DNA of 16,985 nucleotides from Methanobacteriota archaeon (GCA_016874685.1 VGTM01000033.1:1-16985); one strand, 5' to 3'. Numbered from the stretch's first letter, positions 4,853 to 15,202 are shown. Numbers and translations: made by a program. Notes: generated from the sequence alone by a model not told the origin.

Positions 4853-4974
4853 ATTTCAAAATTACATCTTTTATAAGATTTTTTATAATTTTTATTTAAG
4901 TTTTAATTCAAGATAAAATTCACATATTAACTCTGTAAGATTTAAATATAAACAAAAATGCAAGTTTAATACCT

Positions 4975-5035
4975 GCCAAGGAGCTAAGAGGCGAAGCGGT
5001 GGACTGCATACATTAAAGGTGAGTTTAGATCTTCC
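4975..5035 (+). pseudogene. Degenerate partial copy of tRNA-Cys (5' half near-identical, 3' half decayed)
   Basis: GCCAAGGAGCTAAGAGGCGAAGCGGTGGACTGCA is near-identical (about 2 substitutions and 1 indel) to bases 1-35 of the intact tRNA-Cys at 7665. The following T-arm-like GGTGAGTTTAGATCT is degenerate, and no acceptor 3' strand is present. Confidence 0.6.
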
Positions 5036-5155
5036 TGTATGTATTCCTGAAAAACTGTTAGAATCTGCAAATATCAATGATGGGATTATGTAGAAGTTAA
5101 AATTAGGAAATTAAATAGAAAGGAAATAGATTAAAAAAATAAGGGCCGGATCTAA

Positions 5156-5737
5156 ATGGATAATATCGAAATTAGAAGAAAAATCTTAGAAAAATTGTAT
5201 GATACTGAAAAGATAAATCCTGGAAACATAATATCAAGTATTGACCTTGGTAACGAATTAAATATTTCTAATGAAGATTTAGGATTTAATATTAAATATT
5301 TAAAGGAAAAACAGTTTATTAATGCCGAGCAAATGGCTACTCCATTCTATTCCGCTCTTTTAAGCATTGCTCCCTATGGTATCGATATAGTTGAAGATGA
5401 AAATGAATTTAATAGAAGTTTTCCTTTAATGAATATAACAAATATTCGCAATAGTAAAGGCGTGGTAATAAATTCCGATAACGTTAAGATTGATATCAGT
5501 GAAAATATCAACATAAAAGACAGTTTTAATGAAATATATAATGAAATTGATAATCATATTAATGCAAAAGAAGTTGAACAACGAATTAAAGCAATTGAAG
5601 AAGAATTAAGCAAGGATAAAATTAGTACATCTAAAATAAAAGAATCCACAAACTGGCTTCATAAAAATGCTAATTGGACTATACTTCCATTAATTCAGAT
5701 TTTTCTTAGTTTATATGGGCTCACTTTACCTCGTTAA
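5156..5737 (+). CDS. Hypothetical protein: N-terminal winged-helix-like segment, C-terminal transmembrane anchor
   Basis: ORF of 193 aa with ATG 5156. The N-terminus IRRKILEKLYD...SSIDLGNELNISNEDLGFNIKYLKEKQFI has a wHTH-like pattern. The final 25 aa are hydrophobic (WTILPLIQIFLSLYGLTL). Confidence 0.5.
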   Translation: MDNIEIRRKILEKLYDTEKINPGNIISSIDLGNELNISNEDLGFNIKYLKEKQFINAEQMATPFYSALLSIAPYGIDIVEDENEFNRSFPLMNITNIRNSKGVVINSDNVKIDISENINIKDSFNEIYNEIDNHINAKEVEQRIKAIEEELSKDKISTSKIKESTNWLHKNANWTILPLIQIFLSLYGLTLPR

Positions 5738-5814
5738 AAAAAGAGAAATAATTTAAATTATCTTTTATAGGACATTGCTCTGTAAATCTGTTTTACATAG
5801 TTTCTTAAGATTAT

Positions 5815-7359
5815 CTATTCTTTACTTCTTTTTTCTATTCCTTTTTGAACTTCAACAGCTTTCTTTCCAATTTCTTTTATAAAATAATGTATTACTTTCA
5901 TTTGAGTTAAGCTTTCAAAATCAGGTTTAAAGCTCAATAAACAATTAGTGACATGCATTAAAGAAATAGCTGTATTTTGAAGTGGATCTGCAAGACCATA
6001 ATTTGAAGCTCCAATATGCAAAATCTTATTCTGAGAATCATCCATTAATCCCATACTATGAAAGCCTCTGGAACTTCCATGAACATGTGCTGATGATAAT
6101 TTATAAAATGGACGTAACCTATCAAGCCCTATATATCCCTCTAAACCTCTAAAAGACCGATCCAATCCTTTAAAGTTAGGTATCCATCCATTATCTCCAT
6201 AATAATCACTACCATATTTATTACATAGATAATCCTTTCTTTCTTTCAGTTTATCCAAAGTTTCTTTTTTATGTGGAGCATAGCCTAATTTTTCACACTG
6301 TTCTTGATAAATCAAGGCTTCTTTGTATCTCATTATACTTTCATGTTCTAAATATCTTTGAGAAACAATATTATCATTATCTGATAAAAAAATGGAAATC
6401 ACTGCAAGTTCATGTAAACTTCTCCATCTAGCATTAGCACCATTAGGATATCCTGCCTTTAATAATGTGAGAGCTTCATTACTTATTTGCAAAGCCCTAG
6501 CATGAATTCTAATAAGAGTATTAAACTTAATATCTTCTCTAAAACCTTTTTGGGTAACTTTTTTTCTGTGATTATCAACTGAATCCAATGAAACCCTAAT
6601 TAAACACTCTAATAAATCTAAGGGTTCTTCCCAGTCTTTATATAAAATAGACTCAAATTCCTCTCTATATCCTTTCTGTTCAGTTAACATCTCTTTACTG
6701 AGATCTTTAAATGATTTAAAATAAATTTGAGCAAGTCCAGGTATCAATTTGTTAGCAAGACCATTTTTTAATTTATTCATGTCTTTACCAAATGAAAATG
6801 TATTGTTTTTTTTAATATTAGCTGCTATTATTGCTGTCATTATTTTTGAATGTAAATCTCTGTCAGTTCGTCCTGATTTTTTAATTTCTTCTTTTTTTTC
6901 TTTTAGATATTTTTTGCTTCGATTTATATCAATTTCTTTTTCTAATTGCGCAATTAAATTAAGGATTTTTGGAAAATCACTTTGCAATCTTGCCTTAAAA
7001 TTATTGTAATATTCTACATCGATTTTTTTCACTTTTTTTTCATCTTTAACGTGAATAATTGAGTCTACATCTTTTTGGACATCTTCATATTTATTTTTTA
7101 TATTTTCACGCATATCTATTGATAATCCATATTCTTCAAGGTTTTCTGGAGTTAAATTACTAAAAAAATTGTCAATAAATGTAGCATAAAAGAAAGACTC
7201 AAATAATTCAAAAAAATAATTCTGTAGAATTTCTGATTTATCATATTCATTAAGCATCTCAACAAATTGACTAAATAATTCATCCAATTCCGCATAAAAC
7301 TTTTCAGTCATAATACTTAATTTATTAAAATCAATTAATATTTTTCCATTTTCTTCCAT
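5815..7359 (-). CDS. Large hypothetical protein with a K/E-rich coiled-coil-like N-terminal half and a C-terminal region carrying an Rx4H (HEPN-like) motif; possible defense/abortive-infection type protein
   Basis: Long open frame of 514-525 aa. The first ATG is at 7359 (MEENGKIL); the frame opens further at TTG 7392. The motif ALTLLKAGYPNGANARWRSLHELAV matches the HEPN Rx4-6H pattern. The gene has very low GC compared with its neighbours. Confidence 0.55.
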   Translation of the reverse strand: MEENGKILIDFNKLSIMTEKFYAELDELFSQFVEMLNEYDKSEILQNYFFELFESFFYATFIDNFFSNLTPENLEEYGLSIDMRENIKNKYEDVQKDVDSIIHVKDEKKVKKIDVEYYNNFKARLQSDFPKILNLIAQLEKEIDINRSKKYLKEKKEEIKKSGRTDRDLHSKIMTAIIAANIKKNNTFSFGKDMNKLKNGLANKLIPGLAQIYFKSFKDLSKEMLTEQKGYREEFESILYKDWEEPLDLLECLIRVSLDSVDNHRKKVTQKGFREDIKFNTLIRIHARALQISNEALTLLKAGYPNGANARWRSLHELAVISIFLSDNDNIVSQRYLEHESIMRYKEALIYQEQCEKLGYAPHKKETLDKLKERKDYLCNKYGSDYYGDNGWIPNFKGLDRSFRGLEGYIGLDRLRPFYKLSSAHVHGSSRGFHSMGLMDDSQNKILHIGASNYGLADPLQNTAISLMHVTNCLLSFKPDFESLTQMKVIHYFIKEIGKKAVEVQKGIEKRSKE

Positions 7360-7618
7360 CTTTACTTGAAATCTTAGACTGCCGAATACCAACTCTCAAA
7401 GTTTCACCTTTACGTCTGGCCCTTAAAAATTTCCTCTGGGTTTCTTCAATAGCTTCCATTAGGCGCATATATTTTGTTTCAGGCGAAATAACTTTATTGT
7501 ACTTAGAATGGCTATAATCAATATTAAATAAAACGACATTAGATATTTTTAAATATAAATAGGGTATAATTAAACCATATTTAAATTTCATTATTTTAAA
7601 AATTGTTTCACTCCACAA
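7331..7618 (-). CDS. Small ORF (95 aa, TTG start) overlapping the 5' end of the large Rx4H gene; possibly spurious
   Basis: ORF only, with no RBS. The first ATG is internal and the product is basic. Confidence 0.2.
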   Translation of the reverse strand: MWSETIFKIMKFKYGLIIPYLYLKISNVVLFNIDYSHSKYNKVISPETKYMRLMEAIEETQRKFLRARRKGETLRVGIRQSKISSKDGRKWKNIN

Positions 7619-7664
7619 GATTTAAATACCAACAATATATAATGTATTTAATGCGCTATGGTAT

Positions 7665-7736
<72 letters not shown>

Positions 7737-7780
7737 TCTTAAATTCTTTAAAGCATAAAATCTCAGATTTTTAAATTTGT

Positions 7781-7919
<139 letters not shown>

Positions 7920-7925
7920 TCACCC

Positions 7926-7937
7926 TCTTTTTTTTAT
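7926..7937 (+). terminator. Oligo-T tract (9 T) immediately after tRNA-Trp; archaeal-type terminator
   Basis: ctcttttttttta directly follows the tRNA 3' end. Confidence 0.4.
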
Positions 7938-7990
7938 TGATATTACATTTAAAATTAGAATAAACCAAAAAAGTATCTCTGGTGGATAAA

Positions 7991-8611
7991 ATGGAAAAGA
8001 TCAATGATGTCTTCATAATTGAAGGAGTGGGTTTTGATTCTAATGTTTATATCATCCATGACATGATCGTTGATACTGGAACAGGAGAAAACATTCAATA
8101 TATATTAAATTCTGTTAAAAAAGCGGGTCTTAGAGTTGAGGACATATCAATGGTTTTAAATACACACTGTCATTTTGATCATACTGGAGGTAACCCCTAT
8201 TTTCCATCTGCCAAAATAGCCATTCATAAAGACGATGCCTCTGCACTGGAGGAAAGTGACGGTGTTAAAACCCTTGGTTTTATGTTTAAAAGATCATTTG
8301 AACCAATGAAAGTTGATGTTTATTTGAATGAAGGTGATAGAATTGGCAATTTTGAAGTTATTCACACTCCAGGACATACCATGGGTTCTATCTGTCTTTA
8401 TGATGGGGAAATTTTAATATGTGGGGACACAGTTTTTGCAAATGGAGGTTTCGGCAGAGTGGATCTTGGTGGAGACTTAAAAATGATGCAAAAATCTTTA
8501 GAGAGGCTCAGTAAGCTGGATATAGAATATCTTCTCCCTGGACACGGACCATGGGTCAATAATGGATCTCAACACGTAAAATGGGCATATGATCTTTTAA
8601 AAGAATTTTAG
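7991..8611 (+). CDS. MBL-fold metallo-hydrolase
   Basis: HCHFDHTGG (the HxHxDH motif), a later His (HTPGH), and a C-terminal PGHG. A GGTGGA RBS sits 4 nt before ATG 7991, and the frame also opens at GTG 7982. Confidence 0.85.
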   Translation: MEKINDVFIIEGVGFDSNVYIIHDMIVDTGTGENIQYILNSVKKAGLRVEDISMVLNTHCHFDHTGGNPYFPSAKIAIHKDDASALEESDGVKTLGFMFKRSFEPMKVDVYLNEGDRIGNFEVIHTPGHTMGSICLYDGEILICGDTVFANGGFGRVDLGGDLKMMQKSLERLSKLDIEYLLPGHGPWVNNGSQHVKWAYDLLKEF

Positions 8612-8731
8612 AGGAATAAACTGATTCATTTAATCTGCAATTTTTTATTTAAGAATTTAAGGTAAATTTTCAAATAATAGACAAATTTATACAAAATAAT
8701 AATTTTAATGGCTTAAATCCTTAATACTTAA

Positions 8732-8940
8732 ATTTAGGCTCTGTAGAAATCCTCATCAAAAGTTGATGATGAAAGTATAATGCTTTGAAATATTTGTGAT
8801 TATAAGACCATAAAGATGTTTTAGCACTCTGAATGCATAGATAAGCTTTAATAGATATTTTTCCGACCAAAACATCTATAGATCATCTTACTTGATAATA
8901 ACTTATGTACAAATTTGCATGTTTTCTACAGAGCCTAAAT
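8732..8940. mobile_element. MITE-like non-autonomous element, copy A (~209 bp, 18-bp terminal inverted repeats ATTTAGGCTCTGTAGAAA)
   Basis: The left end atttaggctctgtagaaa is the exact reverse complement of the right end tttctacagagcctaaat. It has no coding capacity. It has internal inverted repeats (TCATCAA-aag-TTGATGA, and AGATGTTTT...AAAACATCT). A second, about 97% identical copy is at 12888-13096. Confidence 0.7.
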
Positions 8941-8944
8941 GAAT

Positions 8945-9403
8945 TCAGATCTTTTCAATATACACTGCTTTAATTAATGGTACAACTGTGTTTTTGGGTA
9001 AGTCTTCTTGTGACGTAGATGGGCCGTATTCTCCATAGACCTCTATTTTATCTCCTTCTTTGTAGGGTATTCGTGTTGAGTAGGTTACTAGAATGTATGG
9101 GTTGGGTGATAGTTCAGGGACTTTAAGCTCAATGTCAGTGGTGTTATCAAAGTTTTCTCTTATCTTTAGTATTTCACCTTTCACTTTAACTCTCTGTCCT
9201 AATGATTTATCAGAAATCATAGATACGTTCAGTTCACTGCAAGAAGCTTTATACGCTGAAACATTATCTTCTGAAACAGTGGGTAAACAAATATCACTTC
9301 TCTCCACCTCACCTCCTACAAATCCAAACATTACTATGTAACCTATAAAACCTGCCGCCACTGTTATTAGTAGTACTGCTAGAACTTTACTCAATTTCTC
9401 CAT
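8945..9403 (-). CDS. Small membrane-anchored protein, paralog 1 of 3 (N-terminal TM/signal anchor plus ~120-aa extracytoplasmic domain with OB-fold-like profile)
   Basis: GGAGGAG RBS before ATG 9403. N-terminus MEKLSKVLAVLLITVAAGFIGYIVMF. Conserved core VKVKGEIL...IELKVPELSP.PYILV.YS..IP.KEGD.I.VYG.Y shared with 10374-10856 and 10890-11372. Confidence 0.65.
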   Translation of the reverse strand: MEKLSKVLAVLLITVAAGFIGYIVMFGFVGGEVERSDICLPTVSEDNVSAYKASCSELNVSMISDKSLGQRVKVKGEILKIRENFDNTTDIELKVPELSPNPYILVTYSTRIPYKEGDKIEVYGEYGPSTSQEDLPKNTVVPLIKAVYIEKI

Positions 9404-9443
9404 TATACTCCTCCAATAAATTTATTTGATATGAAAACTTTCT

Positions 9444-10140
9444 TCAGCATTCCAAAGGTCTAGTGAGGGAGCCATTCCAAGACCATTCCCAAACCCAGTC
9501 ATAATGCCATTCTGTCACATAAGCATATACCCAACGAAGAACTCTTCTCAATTCTACTTTACTCGGTTTACCCCTATACCGCTTTGTTACTACATACTCA
9601 CGTACATACATCTGTATCCAAGTCCAGTGCCCCCCATAATGCTGTACTTTCACCCATAATTTGCCCTTAACACTCTGCATTTCTTCATCGGTTAGAGTTC
9701 TGTTATCTGAATGCACCTTAGTTGAATTTATATTTGTTGTGTCAGTTACGGATTCTGACGATGTTGTATTTCCATTGATTTGATTTGTTTGATTATTTGC
9801 TTGATCTGTAGTTCCATTAACTTGTGTTGAATTATTAGGATCATTTATAACCAGTGCATATCCGCTGTAAACCTCAGCAAACTTCTCTCTGCTCATATCA
9901 ATGTTCCCTAGGGAGGGATCTGCCAGTTTAACGCTTTCATTTGTTATTTCTCTTACGACGCTGTAGTGTGGTCCGCCATCGATGGTTACATACACTATGT
10001 TGTTCTTTTTAAGCTCCTCTATTGACAGTTTCATGCCAACCGCATTTAAATCTTTAGCCTTGGCTGCTTCTGCCAATCGTACATTGTTGTCCAGTTTTCA
10101 TCTGTTCCCCCGACATTGGCAAATTTCCGTTATGTTATAT
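9444..10140 (-). pseudogene. 5'-truncated, frameshifted duplicate of the C39-like peptidase gene (retains the region after the catalytic Cys plus the W/Y-rich tail)
   Basis: The ORF 9444-10076 (TTG start) aligns with residues about 190-400 of the 402-aa protein. Nucleotide identity is about 90% over 9895-10010 versus 11950-12070. Upstream in another frame reads GTDENWTTMY (the intact copy has GTDENGTTMYGLVEAAKAK). A 1-nt deletion near 10079 breaks the frame, and the N-terminal signal peptide, linker and CGPAALA catalytic motif are absent. Confidence 0.65.
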
Positions 10141-10373
10141 TGACTTCAAAGTTGTTTAAGACTGTTTTAAGTGCTGCAGGTCTCAAGTTTAAAAAGTTAA
10201 TTGCATACACTTTTTCTATTATCTGAACCCTTATTGTGTCATTTGGATTTTTATGTGCTCTTAGAGATTATAATTTTTACAAAATGTGATTTATCCAATA
10301 ATTATTCCGGAATTACATTTATAAAATCATTAACTTCTTTAAAAAATAAATAAATTATGAAAATGGTTTATTT

Positions 10374-10856
10374 TTATGTTTTTTCTATGTATGCGGCTTT
10401 GATAGCGGATAAATCTTTGTTTGCCAATTCTTGTGATGATTGAGTTCCTACAGGAAATTCATATACTCCATATACTGTTATCATGTCGCCTTCTTTGAAG
10501 GGGATGGTTGCTGAGTAACTGACAAGAATGTGATGGTATGGTGAGAGTTCTGGAACTTTAAGTTCAATGTATGTTCTTGTTTTGTCAAATTGCATATATT
10601 CTTCTTTTTTTTGTATTTGGCCTTTTACTTTGACTTTTTGTCCGTTTAGAGCTTTGAAATCTTTAGATAATTCAGATAGGTTAATTTCGGTGCAGGAATT
10701 TTTATATGATGAAATATTGGCTTCTCCTGTAACAGCGGGTACATAAAAATCGCTTTCCTTACCTTCAAAAGTAAAAGGTATTCCAAATATTACATAAGCA
10801 AAAGCAGCTACTACTATAATTAGTATTACTGCCAGAACTTTACTCAATTTCTCCAT
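10374..10856 (-). CDS. Small membrane-anchored protein, paralog 2 of 3 (OB-fold-like extracytoplasmic domain)
   Basis: GGAGGT RBS 7 nt before ATG 10856. It shares the N-terminus MEKLSKVLAV with paralog 1 and the core EGKESD.Y.PAVTGE.NIS.YKNSCT..NLS...VKVKG.I..KEEY.QFDKTRT.I.LKVP.LSP with paralog 3. Confidence 0.7.
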   Translation of the reverse strand: MEKLSKVLAVILIIVVAAFAYVIFGIPFTFEGKESDFYVPAVTGEANISSYKNSCTEINLSELSKDFKALNGQKVKVKGQIQKKEEYMQFDKTRTYIELKVPELSPYHHILVSYSATIPFKEGDMITVYGVYEFPVGTQSSQELANKDLSAIKAAYIEKT

Positions 10857-10889
10857 TACAAAACCTCCAATAAAAAAATATGATTATTT

Positions 10890-11372
10890 TCACTTCTTTT
10901 CTATGTACCCTGCTTTAATACAGGGAAAAAATTTGTTTGCTATCTCTGGTGGTGCATCAGTTCCTCCTGGGTAATAATATTTTCCATAAACCGTTATCAT
11001 ATCGCCCTGTGTGAATGTAAGTGTCCCAGAGTAACTGACAAGAATGTAAGGGTCGGGTGAAAGTCCTGGGACTTTAAGTACTATAGATGTTCTTGTTTTG
11101 TCAAATTGTACATACTCTTTTTTTTCTAGTATTTCACCTGTCACTTTTACATTTTTATCAATTAATGAAAAAGGATCTTTTGATACTTGAGATAAGTTAA
11201 GTTTAGTGCAGGAATTTTTATATGCTGAAATATTGTCTTCTCCTGTAACAGCAGGTGCATAATAATCGCTCTCCTTACCTTCAAAAGACAGCCCAAAAAT
11301 TTGAATATAACCTATAAAACTTACTGCTGCTATTATTAGTAGTACTACTGAAATTTTTATTTTTTTATTCAT
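10890..11372 (-). CDS. Small membrane-anchored protein, paralog 3 of 3 (OB-fold-like extracytoplasmic domain)
   Basis: GGTGA RBS before ATG 11372. It is 160 aa and shares about 60% identity with paralog 2 over the ectodomain. Confidence 0.7.
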   Translation of the reverse strand: MNKKIKISVVLLIIAAVSFIGYIQIFGLSFEGKESDYYAPAVTGEDNISAYKNSCTKLNLSQVSKDPFSLIDKNVKVTGEILEKKEYVQFDKTRTSIVLKVPGLSPDPYILVSYSGTLTFTQGDMITVYGKYYYPGGTDAPPEIANKFFPCIKAGYIEKK

Positions 11373-11513
11373 TCTATCACCATTTTAATTTAAAAAGTTA
11401 AAAAAAGATATAAACTACTGTTATTTAAGTTTATAACTCTTCAACTAAAGGTATCTGATGTTAGTAGGTAAACCACTATACATATTTCCCCTTGCTAACC
11501 CCTAAAATGGCCA

Positions 11514-12722
11514 TTAACCATAATATGGCCATGGAGGAGTAAAGAATCCAACATAATTCCAAGGCAATGTCCAACACCAAATTCTCACTACATGCCATCC
11601 ATATATTTTCCTATACCATCCCCATTTTTGATACCAACCCTCATGCCTATAAAACAGCCAAGCAGTACTTGATCCTTTAACAGTACCTGCGGGAAATATA
11701 TGTGTGTGTCGTCCATATTTCCACTCATACCAGCTCCAAAACCATCCTTTTACCCATACAGGTATCAAAGCGTGTTTTCCTTTAATATTCTGCATCTCTT
11801 CGTCAATCAGAATTTTACTGTTATCTGCCTGCACATTAGTTGAATTTGTATCTGTTTCATTCTTTGTTTGTTCTGTAGTTCCATTAACTTCTGTTGAATT
11901 ATTAGGATCAGTTATAACCAACGCATTCCCACTATAAGCCGCAGTAAAATCTTCTCTACTCATTTCAATGTTCCCTAGGGAGGGATCTGCCAGTTTAACG
12001 CTTTCATTTGTTACTTCCCTTACCACGCTGTAATGTGGCCCGCCATCGATTGTCACAAACACTATGTTATTGGGTTTAAGATCATCTACTAATAACTTCA
12101 TACCAACACCATTAAAACCTTTTGCTTTTGCTGCTTCAACTAACCCATACATTGTTGTTCCGTTCTCATCTGTTCCGGCTAAAGTTGCTAGTTCTTGTTC
12201 TGTTGTGTTGATTCCCAGGTTATTTAGTACTGTTGCAAGGGCTGCTGGTCCGCAGGTATGATTGGTTGACTGCATCACAATACCCGTTGTGTCTATTTGT
12301 GGAATTGTCTCATTTTCAGCCACCGTTGTATCATTCTCAAGATTAATATTTAAATCCGGGATTTGCACATCTTCTGTAACTTGATCATTCACGACTGGCG
12401 TAGAATTATCATTTGTCGTTGTATCTGGTTCTGTAACTGCATTTGGTGTTTCAATTGCAGTATTTTGCTCTGTAGCTGTGTTTGACATGTCTGCTGTCAT
12501 ATTAGCTACTTCAATATTTGTTTCAGTTTGTCCATCCTCAACCTGCTCAGTTATCTGAGATGCAGCCTCTGCATCAACACCTTTTCCTTTAACATCCATT
12601 GGATCAAGTGTTTGGAAATTGGCGGAAGCTGCAACAGCACATGCTGGTGATAATCCCATGATCAAAGCCACCAGCATGATGGCTGCCACTGTTTTGGTAT
12701 TAACTTTCTTCAATTTTATCAC
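11514..12722 (-). CDS. Secreted C39-like cysteine peptidase domain protein with T/N/E-rich linker and Trp/Tyr-rich C-terminal tail
   Basis: Sec-type signal peptide (MIKLKKVNTKTVAAIMLVALIMGLSPACAVAASA). The low-complexity linker is rich in N-x-T/S sequons. The C39-like catalytic signature is QSTNHTCGPAALATVLNNLG (Cys) with a downstream DGGPHYSVV (His). The last ~85 aa are about 30% W/Y/F. The start is GTG 12722 or TTG 12713, with an AGGGGTGA RBS. Confidence 0.75.
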   Translation of the reverse strand: MIKLKKVNTKTVAAIMLVALIMGLSPACAVAASANFQTLDPMDVKGKGVDAEAASQITEQVEDGQTETNIEVANMTADMSNTATEQNTAIETPNAVTEPDTTTNDNSTPVVNDQVTEDVQIPDLNINLENDTTVAENETIPQIDTTGIVMQSTNHTCGPAALATVLNNLGINTTEQELATLAGTDENGTTMYGLVEAAKAKGFNGVGMKLLVDDLKPNNIVFVTIDGGPHYSVVREVTNESVKLADPSLGNIEMSREDFTAAYSGNALVITDPNNSTEVNGTTEQTKNETDTNSTNVQADNSKILIDEEMQNIKGKHALIPVWVKGWFWSWYEWKYGRHTHIFPAGTVKGSSTAWLFYRHEGWYQKWGWYRKIYGWHVVRIWCWTLPWNYVGFFTPPWPYYG

Positions 12723-12887
12723 CCCTTATGGGTGATATATTTGCTGCAATATAAATATTACTATTATTTATTATTATATTACAAAAGCAATATTGCTCTG
12801 GGAAGACAATATTGTTCTAAAAGCACAAACCATGATTTTATAGTAAGAATTAATTGAAATTAGATAAAATAAAAGATTACTTATCAA

Positions 12888-13096
12888 ATTATGGCTCTGT
12901 AGAAATCCTCATCAAAAGTTGATGATGAAAGTATAATACTTTGAAATATTCGTGATTATAAGACCATAAAGATGTTTTAGCACTCTGAATGCATAGATAA
13001 GCTTTAATAGATATTTTTCCGACCAAAACACCTATAGATCATCTTACTTGATAATAACTTATGTACAAATTTGCATGTTTTCTACAGAGCCTAAAT
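12888..13096. mobile_element. MITE-like non-autonomous element, copy B (same orientation as copy A)
   Basis: ggctctgtagaaa...tttctacagagcctaaat is about 97% identical to 8732-8940, with about 5 substitutions including one that weakens the left TIR (at versus ta). Confidence 0.7.
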
Positions 13097-13140
13097 TTAA
13101 ATATACAGAAAAAAGAGGTAGTTAAGGTATTAATTGGATA

Positions 13141-14097
13141 TTAGGGTACAATCACTGTTAAGTTATTCATGTGCCAAGTGGAACCTAAAAAATCATAATA
13201 AGTTATGTTCCACTGAGGTGAATTGGAAGTGGCGTCAATACAGGTGAAATATGCATCCCACCTGAAGTTTTCAACTTCTGGGAGATTATCTGCAATTTTT
13301 ATCGTGTTTTTGGCTGATTCATAGGAACCATTTTGAACTGTAATAAATTTGAAGGTCCCAATGTCCTGCCTACGATTTTCAATAGCATTGTACTCTAGGG
13401 CATGGTATTGCTGATTTTTAAAATCAGTACCCACAACATTCCAAACAAACATATCAGAAGTTGGATAGGCTGATATTTCAGTGTAGTTTCCATTAAAAGA
13501 TACACTTTCTGTTTGAAGGATAGTGAATTTCTCGTAACCTCTTATACCTCCAAATGAGACTAAGAGAACGATAAAAACTGCCATAGCAACTTTTTTATAT
13601 TTCCAATTTATTTTTAGGTAAATAATGAACAGTACAACCGCACCAACAGCCAACGTGATAGAATCAAGGTAGTAATATATTTCGGCACTGTATCTGGTGA
13701 TTGTGAAGGGATAAAGCAGTGGAATACCTTTGCTGGTCAAAAAATCAAGTACTAAGTGAGTTAAAGCCCCGAAACATGCTATAAAACCTACTGTCATTGC
13801 ATTACTTTTATTAAACTCCAGATTTATATCACGTTTTATAACATAACCAATGGATCTTTTAACTGGTTTTCGAGATAGGATGTAGATAAAAATAAGGGAT
13901 GTAATAAAACCAAGAATAAAAGAATGAGTAATTCCTCGATGGCTGAAGATGAAATATTCAGGGAAGAGTATTCCAATCCACACAATAAGAAAATCAAAAT
14001 CGAGTGAAATACCTCCAAATGCTCCAGCAAGTTTATTTTTACTTTTTAGAATAGTTAAAATGATGTATGGAACTAGAAAATGTGTTATTATATCCAT
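13141..14097 (-). CDS. Membrane-bound metal-dependent hydrolase, YdjM/DUF457-like, with extra C-terminal extracytoplasmic domain
   Basis: The N-terminus MDIITHFLVPYII and the motifs HRGITHS and THLVLDFLT resemble the YdjM family. There are multiple TM segments and a C-terminal ~140-aa polar domain with N-glycosylation sequons. Confidence 0.6.
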   Translation of the reverse strand: MDIITHFLVPYIILTILKSKNKLAGAFGGISLDFDFLIVWIGILFPEYFIFSHRGITHSFILGFITSLIFIYILSRKPVKRSIGYVIKRDINLEFNKSNAMTVGFIACFGALTHLVLDFLTSKGIPLLYPFTITRYSAEIYYYLDSITLAVGAVVLFIIYLKINWKYKKVAMAVFIVLLVSFGGIRGYEKFTILQTESVSFNGNYTEISAYPTSDMFVWNVVGTDFKNQQYHALEYNAIENRRQDIGTFKFITVQNGSYESAKNTIKIADNLPEVENFRWDAYFTCIDATSNSPQWNITYYDFLGSTWHMNNLTVIVP

Positions 14098-14331
14098 TTT
14101 ATTTTTACCTGATTAATTGGTTTTTTTGAGTGTTATAATGTTACCCAAGCATATATTAAATTAATTAATTTTCGGTTTTTTGTAGCTAACTAATGTATCA
14201 TATATTTTTGAATTTTTTTGTATATCAAAATGGATTTTAAATCCAATTGTTGAATAAATGATTTATCTAGTTTTAATGAAAGACAGTTCCATGATTATTA
14301 ATAAATCAAAAAAATAAAAAAATGGAGGGAC

Positions 14332-15099
14332 TTATTTTAGTACCTCTGCTTCTATGAATTCTTTGATGTCTTTGATCGTAGCCATAAACTGGGCAGGGAA
14401 TAATATGGTTGAATTTTTCTCTGCCGCTATCTCAAGGAGCACCTGTAAATTACGTAGTTGAAGTGCCACTGGATGTGCAGCTATTATATCTGCAGCTTCA
14501 CCAAGTTTTGAAGCAGACAGATATTCACCCTCAGCAGCGATTATCTTAGCTCTTTTCTCTCTTTCTGATTCGGCTTGTTTTGCCATTGATCTTCGCATAG
14601 TGTCAGGTAACTTTATGTCTTTGATCTCCACAGCTGTAACCTTTATTCCCCATGGTTCACTGTGTTCATCTATTATTTCTTTGATCTTATCGTTTATTTT
14701 ATTGGTTGAACTTAAAACGTCATCTAAGAGAAATTGTCCAATGACATTTCTTACTGTGGTCTGTGAAATCTGATTAACTGCTCTGTTGTAATTTTCGATT
14801 ATAACCACAGCATTATATGGATCTATCACTTTAAAATAGGCAACAGCAGCCACATCGATTGAAACATTGTCCTGTGTTATAATCTTTTGGGATGGAATAG
14901 GCATGGTAACGATTCTCAACGATACTTTGACCATTCTATCGACCAAGGGTATTATAAGTCGAAGACCTGGATCTCTGACTCCTATAACCTTACCCAGCCG
15001 AAAAACCACTCCTCTTTCATACTGGTTTACTATACGTATGGACAGTCCTAAAACAATCAAAACTATTATGCCCAAAAAAATGAGCGTAAATATATCCAT
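14332..15099 (-). CDS. SPFH/band 7 (stomatin/prohibitin-like) membrane protein
   Basis: N-terminal TM helix, then [16 protein letters not shown]...[12 protein letters not shown] and the classic SPFH core, then a coiled-coil [27 protein letters not shown] 7 nt before ATG 15099. Confidence 0.85.
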
Positions 15100-15202
15100 A
15101 TTTTCAACCTCCAATAAGATTTTCTAATTTTTTTTTATCAGAGTTTATATATCCGTTTTAAGATATAATTCTTTAGGATCAATAGGTTATTTGGGTGTAA
15201 GC

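Follow-up and report, generated by a model that had tools for sequence, protein, structure and literature searches.

Closest described systems

Composite structures bounded by miniature inverted-repeat transposable elements, or MITEs, have already been documented in bacteria, where they carry mostly resistance genes. In Acinetobacter, a pair of 439-bp MITEs surrounds class 1 integrons, and a pair of MITE-297 elements surrounds the 76-kb mer region of pA297-3 (PMC6382973, which likens the structure to a composite transposon). The subject of this report is a 4,355-bp unit at positions 8737-13091 of a 16,985-nt stretch of DNA ("the window", to which all positions refer) from an archaeon described as Methanobacterium-like or Methanobacteriaceae-like. 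Two 199-nt MITEs flank 3,957 bp of cargo, consisting of C39 peptidase genes and genes for small proteins with a predicted OB fold, and the whole is probably a non-autonomous composite transposon that was inserted en bloc.

The window unit resembles the Acinetobacter pairs in that two elements derived from insertion sequences (ISs) and lacking a transposase bracket the cargo, with mobilisation in trans. Those pairs are bacterial and plasmid-borne and have resistance cargo and ends from other IS families, whereas the window unit is chromosomal and archaeal, with 199-nt MITEs bearing IS5-type ends, an 8-bp target-site duplication (TSD) and C39/OB-fold cargo. The unit is a well-supported example, though mechanistically unsurprising. 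A recent review reports few archaeal MITEs and apparently none in Methanobacterium thermoautotrophicum (PMC10969869). No archaeal MITE-bounded composite was found in the literature searched.

Tn903 consists of two full-length IS903 copies (IS5 family) in inverted orientation, encodes its transposase and is flanked by a 9-bp TSD. Like Tn903, the window unit has IS5-family ends (GGC... termini, DDE_Tnp_1), appears to have used its outermost ends and carries a family-typical TSD around the whole; unlike Tn903, it is bounded by direct 199-nt MITEs, has no transposase and shows a TSD of 8 bp. In this last respect it resembles the IS5-family ISs of methanogens and ISH1, and its terminal 18-20 nt are identical to those of methanogen ISs. 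The translocatable units and pseudo-compound transposons of IS26 are reviewed in PMC7986276. IS26 is an IS6-family element with its own transposase, of which targeted conservative integration is a property. As in the window unit, direct element repeats bound the cargo there and one TSD lies outside, a likeness that fits an origin by recombination or cointegrate formation, which is weighed below. To our knowledge, nothing comparable to targeted conservative integration has been described for IS5-family MITEs.

The cargo is closest to archaeal "dark matter island" loci, which combine C39 peptidases with double-glycine-leader proteins (PMC6393860; arCOG10864 in PMC4158269) and have been proposed to be bacteriocin-like or conflict systems (PMC4158269, PMC6393860). 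Like these islands, the cargo has gene duplicates and hypervariable stretches alongside a bona fide C39 domain. The window differs in having a leader-like motif (LTxEEMQxIxG[K/R/Q]) and a variable peptide in cis with the peptidase, in the last residue of that motif (Lys, Arg or Gln, not Gly), in the lack of an ABC transporter and in its MITE boundaries.

Two direct copies of a 199-nt MITE

A repeat search of the window returned a direct repeat of 227 nt with 95% identity, at 8714-8940 and 12870-13096. Alignment delimits a 199-nt core common to both copies, outside of which they are divergent. The two direct MITE copies around a cassette that the original prediction had described are therefore confirmed, with the correction that its element ends were placed about 5 nt too far out.

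8737-8935, plus strand: MITE copy A, 199 nt, terminal inverted repeats (TIRs) at 8737-8749 and 8923-8935
12893-13091, plus strand: MITE copy B, 199 nt, TIRs at 12893-12905 and 13079-13091

The copies lie in the same orientation and differ at three of the 199 positions (98.5% identity): 8782 G/A, 8795 T/C and 8875 T/C. Each has perfect TIRs of 13 nt, GGCTCTGTAGAAA / TTTCTACAGAGCC. This 13-mer occurs four times in the window against 0.33 expected, and a 39-mer taken from the element has two exact occurrences against 0.00 expected. The longest stop-free stretch of the MITE is 48 codons, and it holds no open reading frame (ORF). Copy A has a GC content of 30%, a subterminal hairpin (TCATCAA-AAG-TTGATGA) and a DNA fold z-score of -3.6; no Rfam family matched the 199-nt element.

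The arrangement recurs in contig L001, from another assembly, which contains both copies, spans all junctions and retains the three copy-specific differences. Two further contigs (L002 and L128) carry one MITE copy each and confirm single junctions. Over 6.8 kb, L001 departs from the window only by a 15-nt tandem duplication (TTAATAAATCAAAAA) at 14313, in the YdjM-Band7 intergenic region, which is a population-level indel.

Searches beyond these contigs were carried out at several scales. Scans of metagenome contigs with a MITE-specific 22-mer (GAAATCCTCATCAAAAGTTGAT) and 21-mer (TTGCATGTTTTCTACAGAGCC) gave 0 matches and did not recover the source contigs either, which this collection evidently lacks; they are uninformative on copy number. 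A scan of viral contigs gave 0 matches to the left-end 18-mer; the one match to the right-end 18-mer was judged to be due to chance, as it lies in a coding region of 47% GC with the partner end absent. The whole unit had no blastn match among PLSDB plasmids or INPHARED phages.

The MITE ends derive from an archaeal IS5-type lineage

In a scan of genome contigs, the left-end 18-mer of the MITE, GGCTCTGTAGAAATCCTC, was found at at least 120 loci, nearly all of them archaeal, with about 17 chance matches estimated in 596 Gb. Hosts among the matches listed include Methanosarcina, Methanolobus, Methanohalophilus, Methanococcoides, Methanofollis and Methanoregula, together with metagenome-assembled genomes (MAGs) of Nanoarchaeota, Micrarchaeia and Nitrososphaeria. 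Paired ends among these matches fall into three size classes (roughly 120 nt, 220-240 nt and 1.0 kb).

The terminal 18-20 nt of the MITE are the ends of IS5-family ISs of about 1 kb and of smaller archaeal MITEs, including those of Methanosarcinales. The ORF of one such element of about 1 kb, in Methanolobus sp. ZRKC3 (L123), scores 230.6 bits (cutoff 140, E=2.5e-68) with the NCBIfam model NF033579, "IS5 family transposase", and also matches Pfam DDE_Tnp_1 (PF01609, E=1.1e-20). Intact transposase ORFs of about 300 aa are also present in L058, L074, L107, L110 and L121, the last from Methanosarcina hadiensis. Full-length family elements of about 1 kb were found in Methanolobus, Methanosarcina, Methanogenium and one Nanoarchaeota MAG; no full-length IS with these ends was found in the source-organism DNA examined. 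The MITE ends are asymmetric, the left one with ...GAAATCCTC and the right one with ...GAAAAC, and this asymmetry recurs in L123 and in the Methanosarcinaceae contig L107. The MITE interior, about 160 nt, matched none of the at least 120 loci listed. Because the terminal 20 nt are common to the repeat and these ISs and the repeat has no transposase coding capacity, it is, judged by its sequence, a MITE of this IS5-type lineage.

The family also defines where its elements end. Among the matches listed, a perfect 8-bp TSD abuts GGCTC/GAGCC in 25 of the 61 paired family elements, and four more agree at 7 of 8 positions; one Nanoarchaeota copy has a 9-bp duplication. As these 8-bp direct repeats lie directly beside GGCTC...GAGCC, the family boundaries are read as exactly GGCTC...GAGCC and its target duplications as 8 bp. 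From TSD length and the ISfinder scheme, we provisionally assign the family to the "ISH1-like group". ISH1 of Halobacterium has the 8-bp TSD AGCCGCCA (PMC7002104).

Two further observations concern the family elsewhere. Contigs of Methanofollis sp. STE_20 (L036, L040, L114 and others) carry many MITEs of the same family of about 230 nt, several per 8 kb, and the family appears to have been recently active in this genome. In a Micrarchaeia MAG (JAVZRC010000004.1; L007, 485-5298), a 4.8-kb element with ends of the same family has no transposase and carries a gene for a 1,329-aa repeat protein. The sequence GAAATATA is found on both sides of it, within a tandem-like repeat of about 18 nt that makes the TSD ambiguous. 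By analogy, this element suggests that ends of the family may carry cargo as large as that of the window unit.

A single outer target-site duplication

With the element ends placed as the family defines them, the outer flanks of the pair are identical at all eight positions. It had been noted at the outset that no clean TSD was visible, which proved wrong.

8729-8736, no strand: left copy of the TSD, TAAATTTA, abutting the left TIR of MITE A
13092-13099, no strand: right copy of the TSD, TAAATTTA, identical to 8729-8736

The flanks of each MITE taken singly behave differently. Those of copy A (left ...acTTAAATTTA, right TAAATGAAttc...) match at 6 of 8 positions and those of copy B (left ...tatCAAATTAT, right TAAATTTAaat...) at 5 of 8. 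Neither copy thus has a family-typical 8-bp TSD of its own, and only the pair as a whole reaches 8/8. Chance identity of two intergenic 8-mers of the window was estimated at 9e-5, or 3.8e-4 in a sampling run, and that of two independent targets drawn from the family target matrix at 2.7e-4. Scored with this matrix, TAAATTTA lies in the top 0.5% of window 8-mers as a target of the family (99.5th percentile). The dinucleotide TA abuts three of the four MITE ends; a TA duplication of the IS630/Tc1 type is ruled out by the 8-bp TSDs of the family and its IS5-type transposase.

An empty site in related genomes

The unit lies between two host genes whose stops both face it, so that the insertion falls between convergent genes.

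7982-8611, plus strand: gene of the metallo-beta-lactamase (MBL) fold, left neighbour, Pfam PF00753; stop 117 nt from the TSD
13141-14097, minus strand: gene for a YdjM-family membrane hydrolase, right neighbour, Pfam PF04307; stop 41 nt from the TSD

A homolog of the YdjM neighbour with 84% identity (P0004) is present on L005 and L006, contigs from two different metagenomes. Their gene order (LPG-synthase, metallophosphatase, Band7, YdjM, MBL) is that of the window, but with YdjM and MBL adjacent. In blastn comparison, L005 is 82% identical to the window at 13154-15125, on the YdjM-Band7 side, and 73% identical at 7610-8709, on the MBL side. In between, 108 nt of L005 stand in for window positions 8710-13153; the cassette is absent, and no MITE or TIR was found in L005. 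When 8737-13099 is removed from the window, the remainder is colinear with L005, which reads TAACTTTA at the position of the single reconstructed TAAATTTA. In the comparison with relatives lacking the cassette that accompanied the original prediction, L005 and L006 are without the whole block and retain no MITE copy at the empty site. All contigs with exact cargo proteins have the same genomic context as the window.

In a more distant relative (GCA_964559295.1, 64% at the amino-acid level; L003, 5940-8882), unrelated genes, of the PIG-L family and of zinc-ribbon type, occupy the gap between YdjM and MBL. The stretch between these two convergent genes is thus a recurrent site for accessory genes.

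Probable en bloc insertion and its alternatives

The locus combines two element copies around passenger genes, an outer TSD of family length and an empty site in relatives. The outer 8/8 TSD, the lack of a TSD for either copy and the clean empty site together argue that the unit was inserted as one piece via its outermost ends, and with MITEs as its boundaries it must depend on a transposase acting in trans. The composite-transposon architecture proposed in the original prediction is thus supported, by the IS-derived ends, the outer TSD and the empty site in L005 and L006. The sequences show the repeat, the family to which its ends belong, the TSD length of that family, the outer TSD, the empty site and the cargo domains; from these data we infer en bloc transposition, mobilisation in trans and, as discussed below, the function of the cargo.

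In mechanistic terms, a cognate DDE transposase would have been supplied in trans, either by another part of the genome or by a transient element. It would have bound the two outermost ends (copy A's left TIR and copy B's right TIR), and the whole segment would have been cut from a donor site and pasted into TAAATTTA, where the MBL-fold and YdjM genes converge, with 8 bp duplicated when the staggered cut was repaired. The inner flanks, TAAATGAA and CAAATTAT, may be the leftover half-sites of two separate, original MITE insertions beside the cassette in the donor.

Several points weigh against this reading. No transposase is found in the window among annotated genes or domain matches. Beyond these two, no copy of the 199-nt MITE was found in the contigs examined, and the TIR is lacking in a further 40 kb or so of DNA from the same population or related ones. 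Among the at least 120 loci listed, none is from Methanobacteriales, and no second insertion site of the unit was found in contigs with exact cargo proteins, plasmids or phages. The relative with the empty site is about 18% diverged at the nucleotide level, which dates the event only loosely. The same pattern of an outer TSD is equally expected if a circular MITE-plus-cassette had integrated at a resident MITE, or from a cointegrate. Furthermore, TAAATTTA is a palindrome, and in the window alone a direct repeat of it is indistinguishable from an extension of the inverted repeat; this is why the inverted repeat is seen to extend to 26 nt (8724-8749 / 13079-13104). This last point is settled in favour of a TSD by the family boundaries and the L005 empty site. 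A longer TIR of 21-26 nt is ruled out, as the extension is the palindromic host target: the family ends at GGCTC, and L005 has the 8-mer once, in an element-free site.

Of the other accounts of the locus, the most serious starts from a solo MITE that first inserted at TAAATTTA with its TSD. A circular MITE-plus-cassette would later have joined it by homologous recombination, or the pair would have arisen as a cointegrate of replicative transposition. Direct copies, an outer 8/8 TSD and non-matching inner flanks are the outcome expected of a cointegrate or of integration of the Campbell type. The cargo family, moreover, has many copies and visibly recombines among its paralogs (mosaic identities of 70-87% to L131, L132 and L133), and the IS26 translocatable unit offers a precedent (reviewed in PMC7986276). 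Such a history needs two events and not one. The flanks of the donor MITE would have been CAAATTAT and TAAATGAA, which agree at only 5 of 8 positions and form no TSD, so that yet another event is needed. A cointegrate would also have started with identical copies, yet three differences are observed, and neither a solo-MITE allele nor another MITE copy was seen in the contigs examined. Circle integration or cointegrate formation is therefore considered less likely than en bloc insertion, although it keeps a small share of plausibility.

It had also been suggested that the cassette already stood at this locus as an island, with one MITE then inserting independently on each side. The variable content of the MBL-YdjM gap, with PIG-L and zinc-ribbon genes in the 64%-identical relative, would suit this account, as would the 6/8 match of the flanks of copy A, which is somewhat above random (about 1.3% of random pairs match at 6 or more positions). 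Independent insertion predicts a TSD for each copy and unrelated outer flanks, the reverse of the 6/8, 5/8 and outer 8/8 observed (chance about 1e-4 to 4e-4). In addition, the window without 8737-13099 is colinear with L005; since excision restores an L005-like sequence, no remnant of an island lies outside the MITEs. The flank pattern thus disfavours this account, and it is improbable. An artefact, either a chance repeat or a misassembly of the metagenome through the repeat, is very hard to credit. Short-read metagenome assemblies do break or mis-join at repeats, and two Logan contigs, L129 and L130, stop 25 nt into the MITE. Chance nevertheless cannot produce a 199-nt repeat of 98.5% identity; L001 spans the entire arrangement, and L002 and L128 confirm single junctions. 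The same arrangement in independently assembled contigs makes an assembly artefact unlikely. Finally, a tandem segmental duplication is ruled out, as only the 199-nt element is repeated at 98.5%, while the internal paralogs are 68-88% identical and have different periods.

Composition of the cargo

The original prediction placed five minus-strand genes at 8945-12722. Five ORFs do fill this interval, one of which, the 210-aa ORF, is better described as a pseudogene.

8945-9403, minus strand: 152-aa predicted OB-fold protein with an N-terminal transmembrane (TM) helix; stop 9 nt from MITE A
9444-10200, minus strand: degraded second C39 copy; 210-aa ORF at 9444-10076, upstream homology to about 10200
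10374-10856, minus strand: 160-aa predicted membrane-anchored OB-fold protein, 89% identical to P0242 of a MITE-less cluster in a related genome
10890-11372, minus strand: 160-aa predicted membrane-anchored OB-fold protein, tandem paralog with a 516-nt period (repeats D2 and D6)
11514-12677, minus strand: intact secreted C39 peptidase, 387 aa from the ATG at 12677, or 402 aa if the GTG at 12722 is used
12678-12892, minus strand: upstream, putatively promoter-bearing region of the cassette, inside the unit

The intact C39 gene matches Pfam PF03412 with E=1.3e-29 (103 bits against a cutoff of 22). Its product consists, in order, of a signal peptide, a Thr/Asn-rich linker, the C39 domain (residues ~133-260 of the 387-aa form) with its Cys and His, a second linker, the motif LIDEEMQNIKGK and an 86-aa Trp-rich tail. 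The Cys (in HTCGP) and the His (in GGPHYS) align to the peptidase domain of PCAT1, and the ComA peptidase domain was also matched in the PDB. On this evidence, the product is a bona fide C39 peptidase. No ABC transporter is fused to it.

Of the domain, the 210-aa ORF retains the His half; it also keeps the leader-like motif and a Trp-rich tail, and its PF03412 match is limited to profile positions 51-132. In translation, a frameshift and a stop break the homology upstream, and the catalytic Cys region is gone. Repeats D1 and D7 tie this copy to the intact gene, and its sequence identifies it as a 5'-degraded C39 pseudogene. As to the upstream region of the cassette, window positions 12559-12817 share 87% identity with the sequence that precedes a C39 paralog in L132. 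A scan for bacterial promoters and terminators gave matches below the expectation from shuffled sequence; these are bacterial models and uninformative for an archaeon.

An alignment of 29 C39 homologs revealed a conserved motif after the peptidase domain, [T/I/Q]-L-[T/S/A]-x-x-E-x-M-Q-x-I-x-G-[K/R/Q], which reads LIDEEMQNIKGK and LTDEEMQSVKGK in the window; the corresponding stretches, tails included, are 11514-11810 and 9444-9690. The double-glycine leader consensus is LSxxELxxIxGG, and the spacing of Leu, Glu, Met/Leu, Ile/Val and Gly in the motif fits it, while the last residue differs. The motif is doubled in some homologs. It is followed by a tail of 52-102 aa that is essentially unalignable, with a mean pairwise identity of 19% against 71% in the C39 domain across the 29 homologs; tails are Trp-rich, cationic or Gly/hydrophobic. 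This organisation suggests self-processed, polymorphic secreted peptides, and the peptidase would release its own variable C-terminal peptide. Sites of the form x-G-K, like the end of the motif, are also found after the signal peptide of the peptidase (DPMxVKGKG). That such sites in the C39 and small proteins might be cleavage sites is speculation based on their resemblance.

The 152-aa gene is a paralog of the two 160-aa genes by repeats and alignment. None of the three small ORFs (152, 160 and 160 aa) has a Pfam match, and homologs of the family are found solely in Methanobacteriaceae-type sequences. Structure prediction gave a pLDDT of 87 and OB-fold matches in the PDB, and the small proteins are predicted to comprise an N-terminal TM helix followed by an OB fold. 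The linker that joins the TM helix to the OB fold, predicted with low confidence, contains a conserved F-x-G-K-E-S-D stretch (FEGKE); this stretch could be a cleavage site that frees the OB domain.

The same samples, and relatives too, contain homologous C39/OB clusters, with many fragments and tandem paralogs, at several loci besides this one. No MITE or TIR was found at these paralogous clusters, which indicates that the MITEs are specific to the window copy. Identities of the cargo to L131, L132 and L133 form a mosaic of 70-87%. The comparison of GC and codon usage between cassette and flanks that had been proposed as a check shows that they match, with a GC content at third codon positions (GC3) of 0.277 in the cargo against 0.247 in the flanks and a correlation of relative synonymous codon usage (RSCU) of r=0.90. 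A foreign origin by composition is thus ruled out, and the match points to the same or a closely related genome as the donor. Taken together, the sequences identify the cargo as a member of a multi-copy, fast-evolving Methanobacteriaceae family, which is probably a bacteriocin-like or surface-conflict module.

Implications for archaeal mobile elements

The window unit represents, at the sequence level, an archaeal case of a passenger block held between two transposase-less MITEs with three classical signatures: ends typical of the family, one TSD on the outside of the pair, and an empty site. It suggests a route to new loci for the fast-evolving C39/OB-fold "dark matter" clusters of Methanobacteriaceae. 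The cargo, in which a C39 peptidase is combined with a leader-like motif and with a tail that is hypervariable and cationic or Trp-rich, is a candidate, open to testing, for a system of antimicrobial or signalling peptides in archaea.

A broader and rather doubtful extension of this view is that MITE pairs may serve as trans-mobilised vehicles that move self-processing loci, each with a protease, a leader and a hypervariable peptide, around and between methanogen genomes. If this were true, the ends would have been borrowed from an IS lineage seen, among the matches listed, mainly in Methanosarcinales, Methanomicrobiales and DPANN. Elements would then have crossed between orders into Methanobacteriaceae, in an order whose model species is reported to be MITE-less (PMC10969869). 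It would also explain mechanistically why the distribution of C39 "dark matter" islands is patchy and multi-locus.

Other features of the window

A degenerate partial copy of tRNA-Cys (85% over 62 nt), with an upstream AAGATTTAAATA box, occupies 4935-5032, 2.6 kb upstream of the intact tRNA-Cys at 7665-7736; the repeat pair as a whole is 4935-5032 and 7617-7736. The segment between them, 5033-7663, has a GC content of 0.23-0.30 and contains a 193-aa ORF and a gene for a 525-aa DUF5677 protein. It is absent in L003 and L005, relatives in which a single sequence corresponds to the two repeats, and this suggests a small element integrated at the tRNA gene. Further downstream, positions 7781-7919 match the Rfam tRNA model with 41 bits over 139 nt and no ARAGORN call, implying a tRNA gene with a long intron, a feature that fits an archaeal host.

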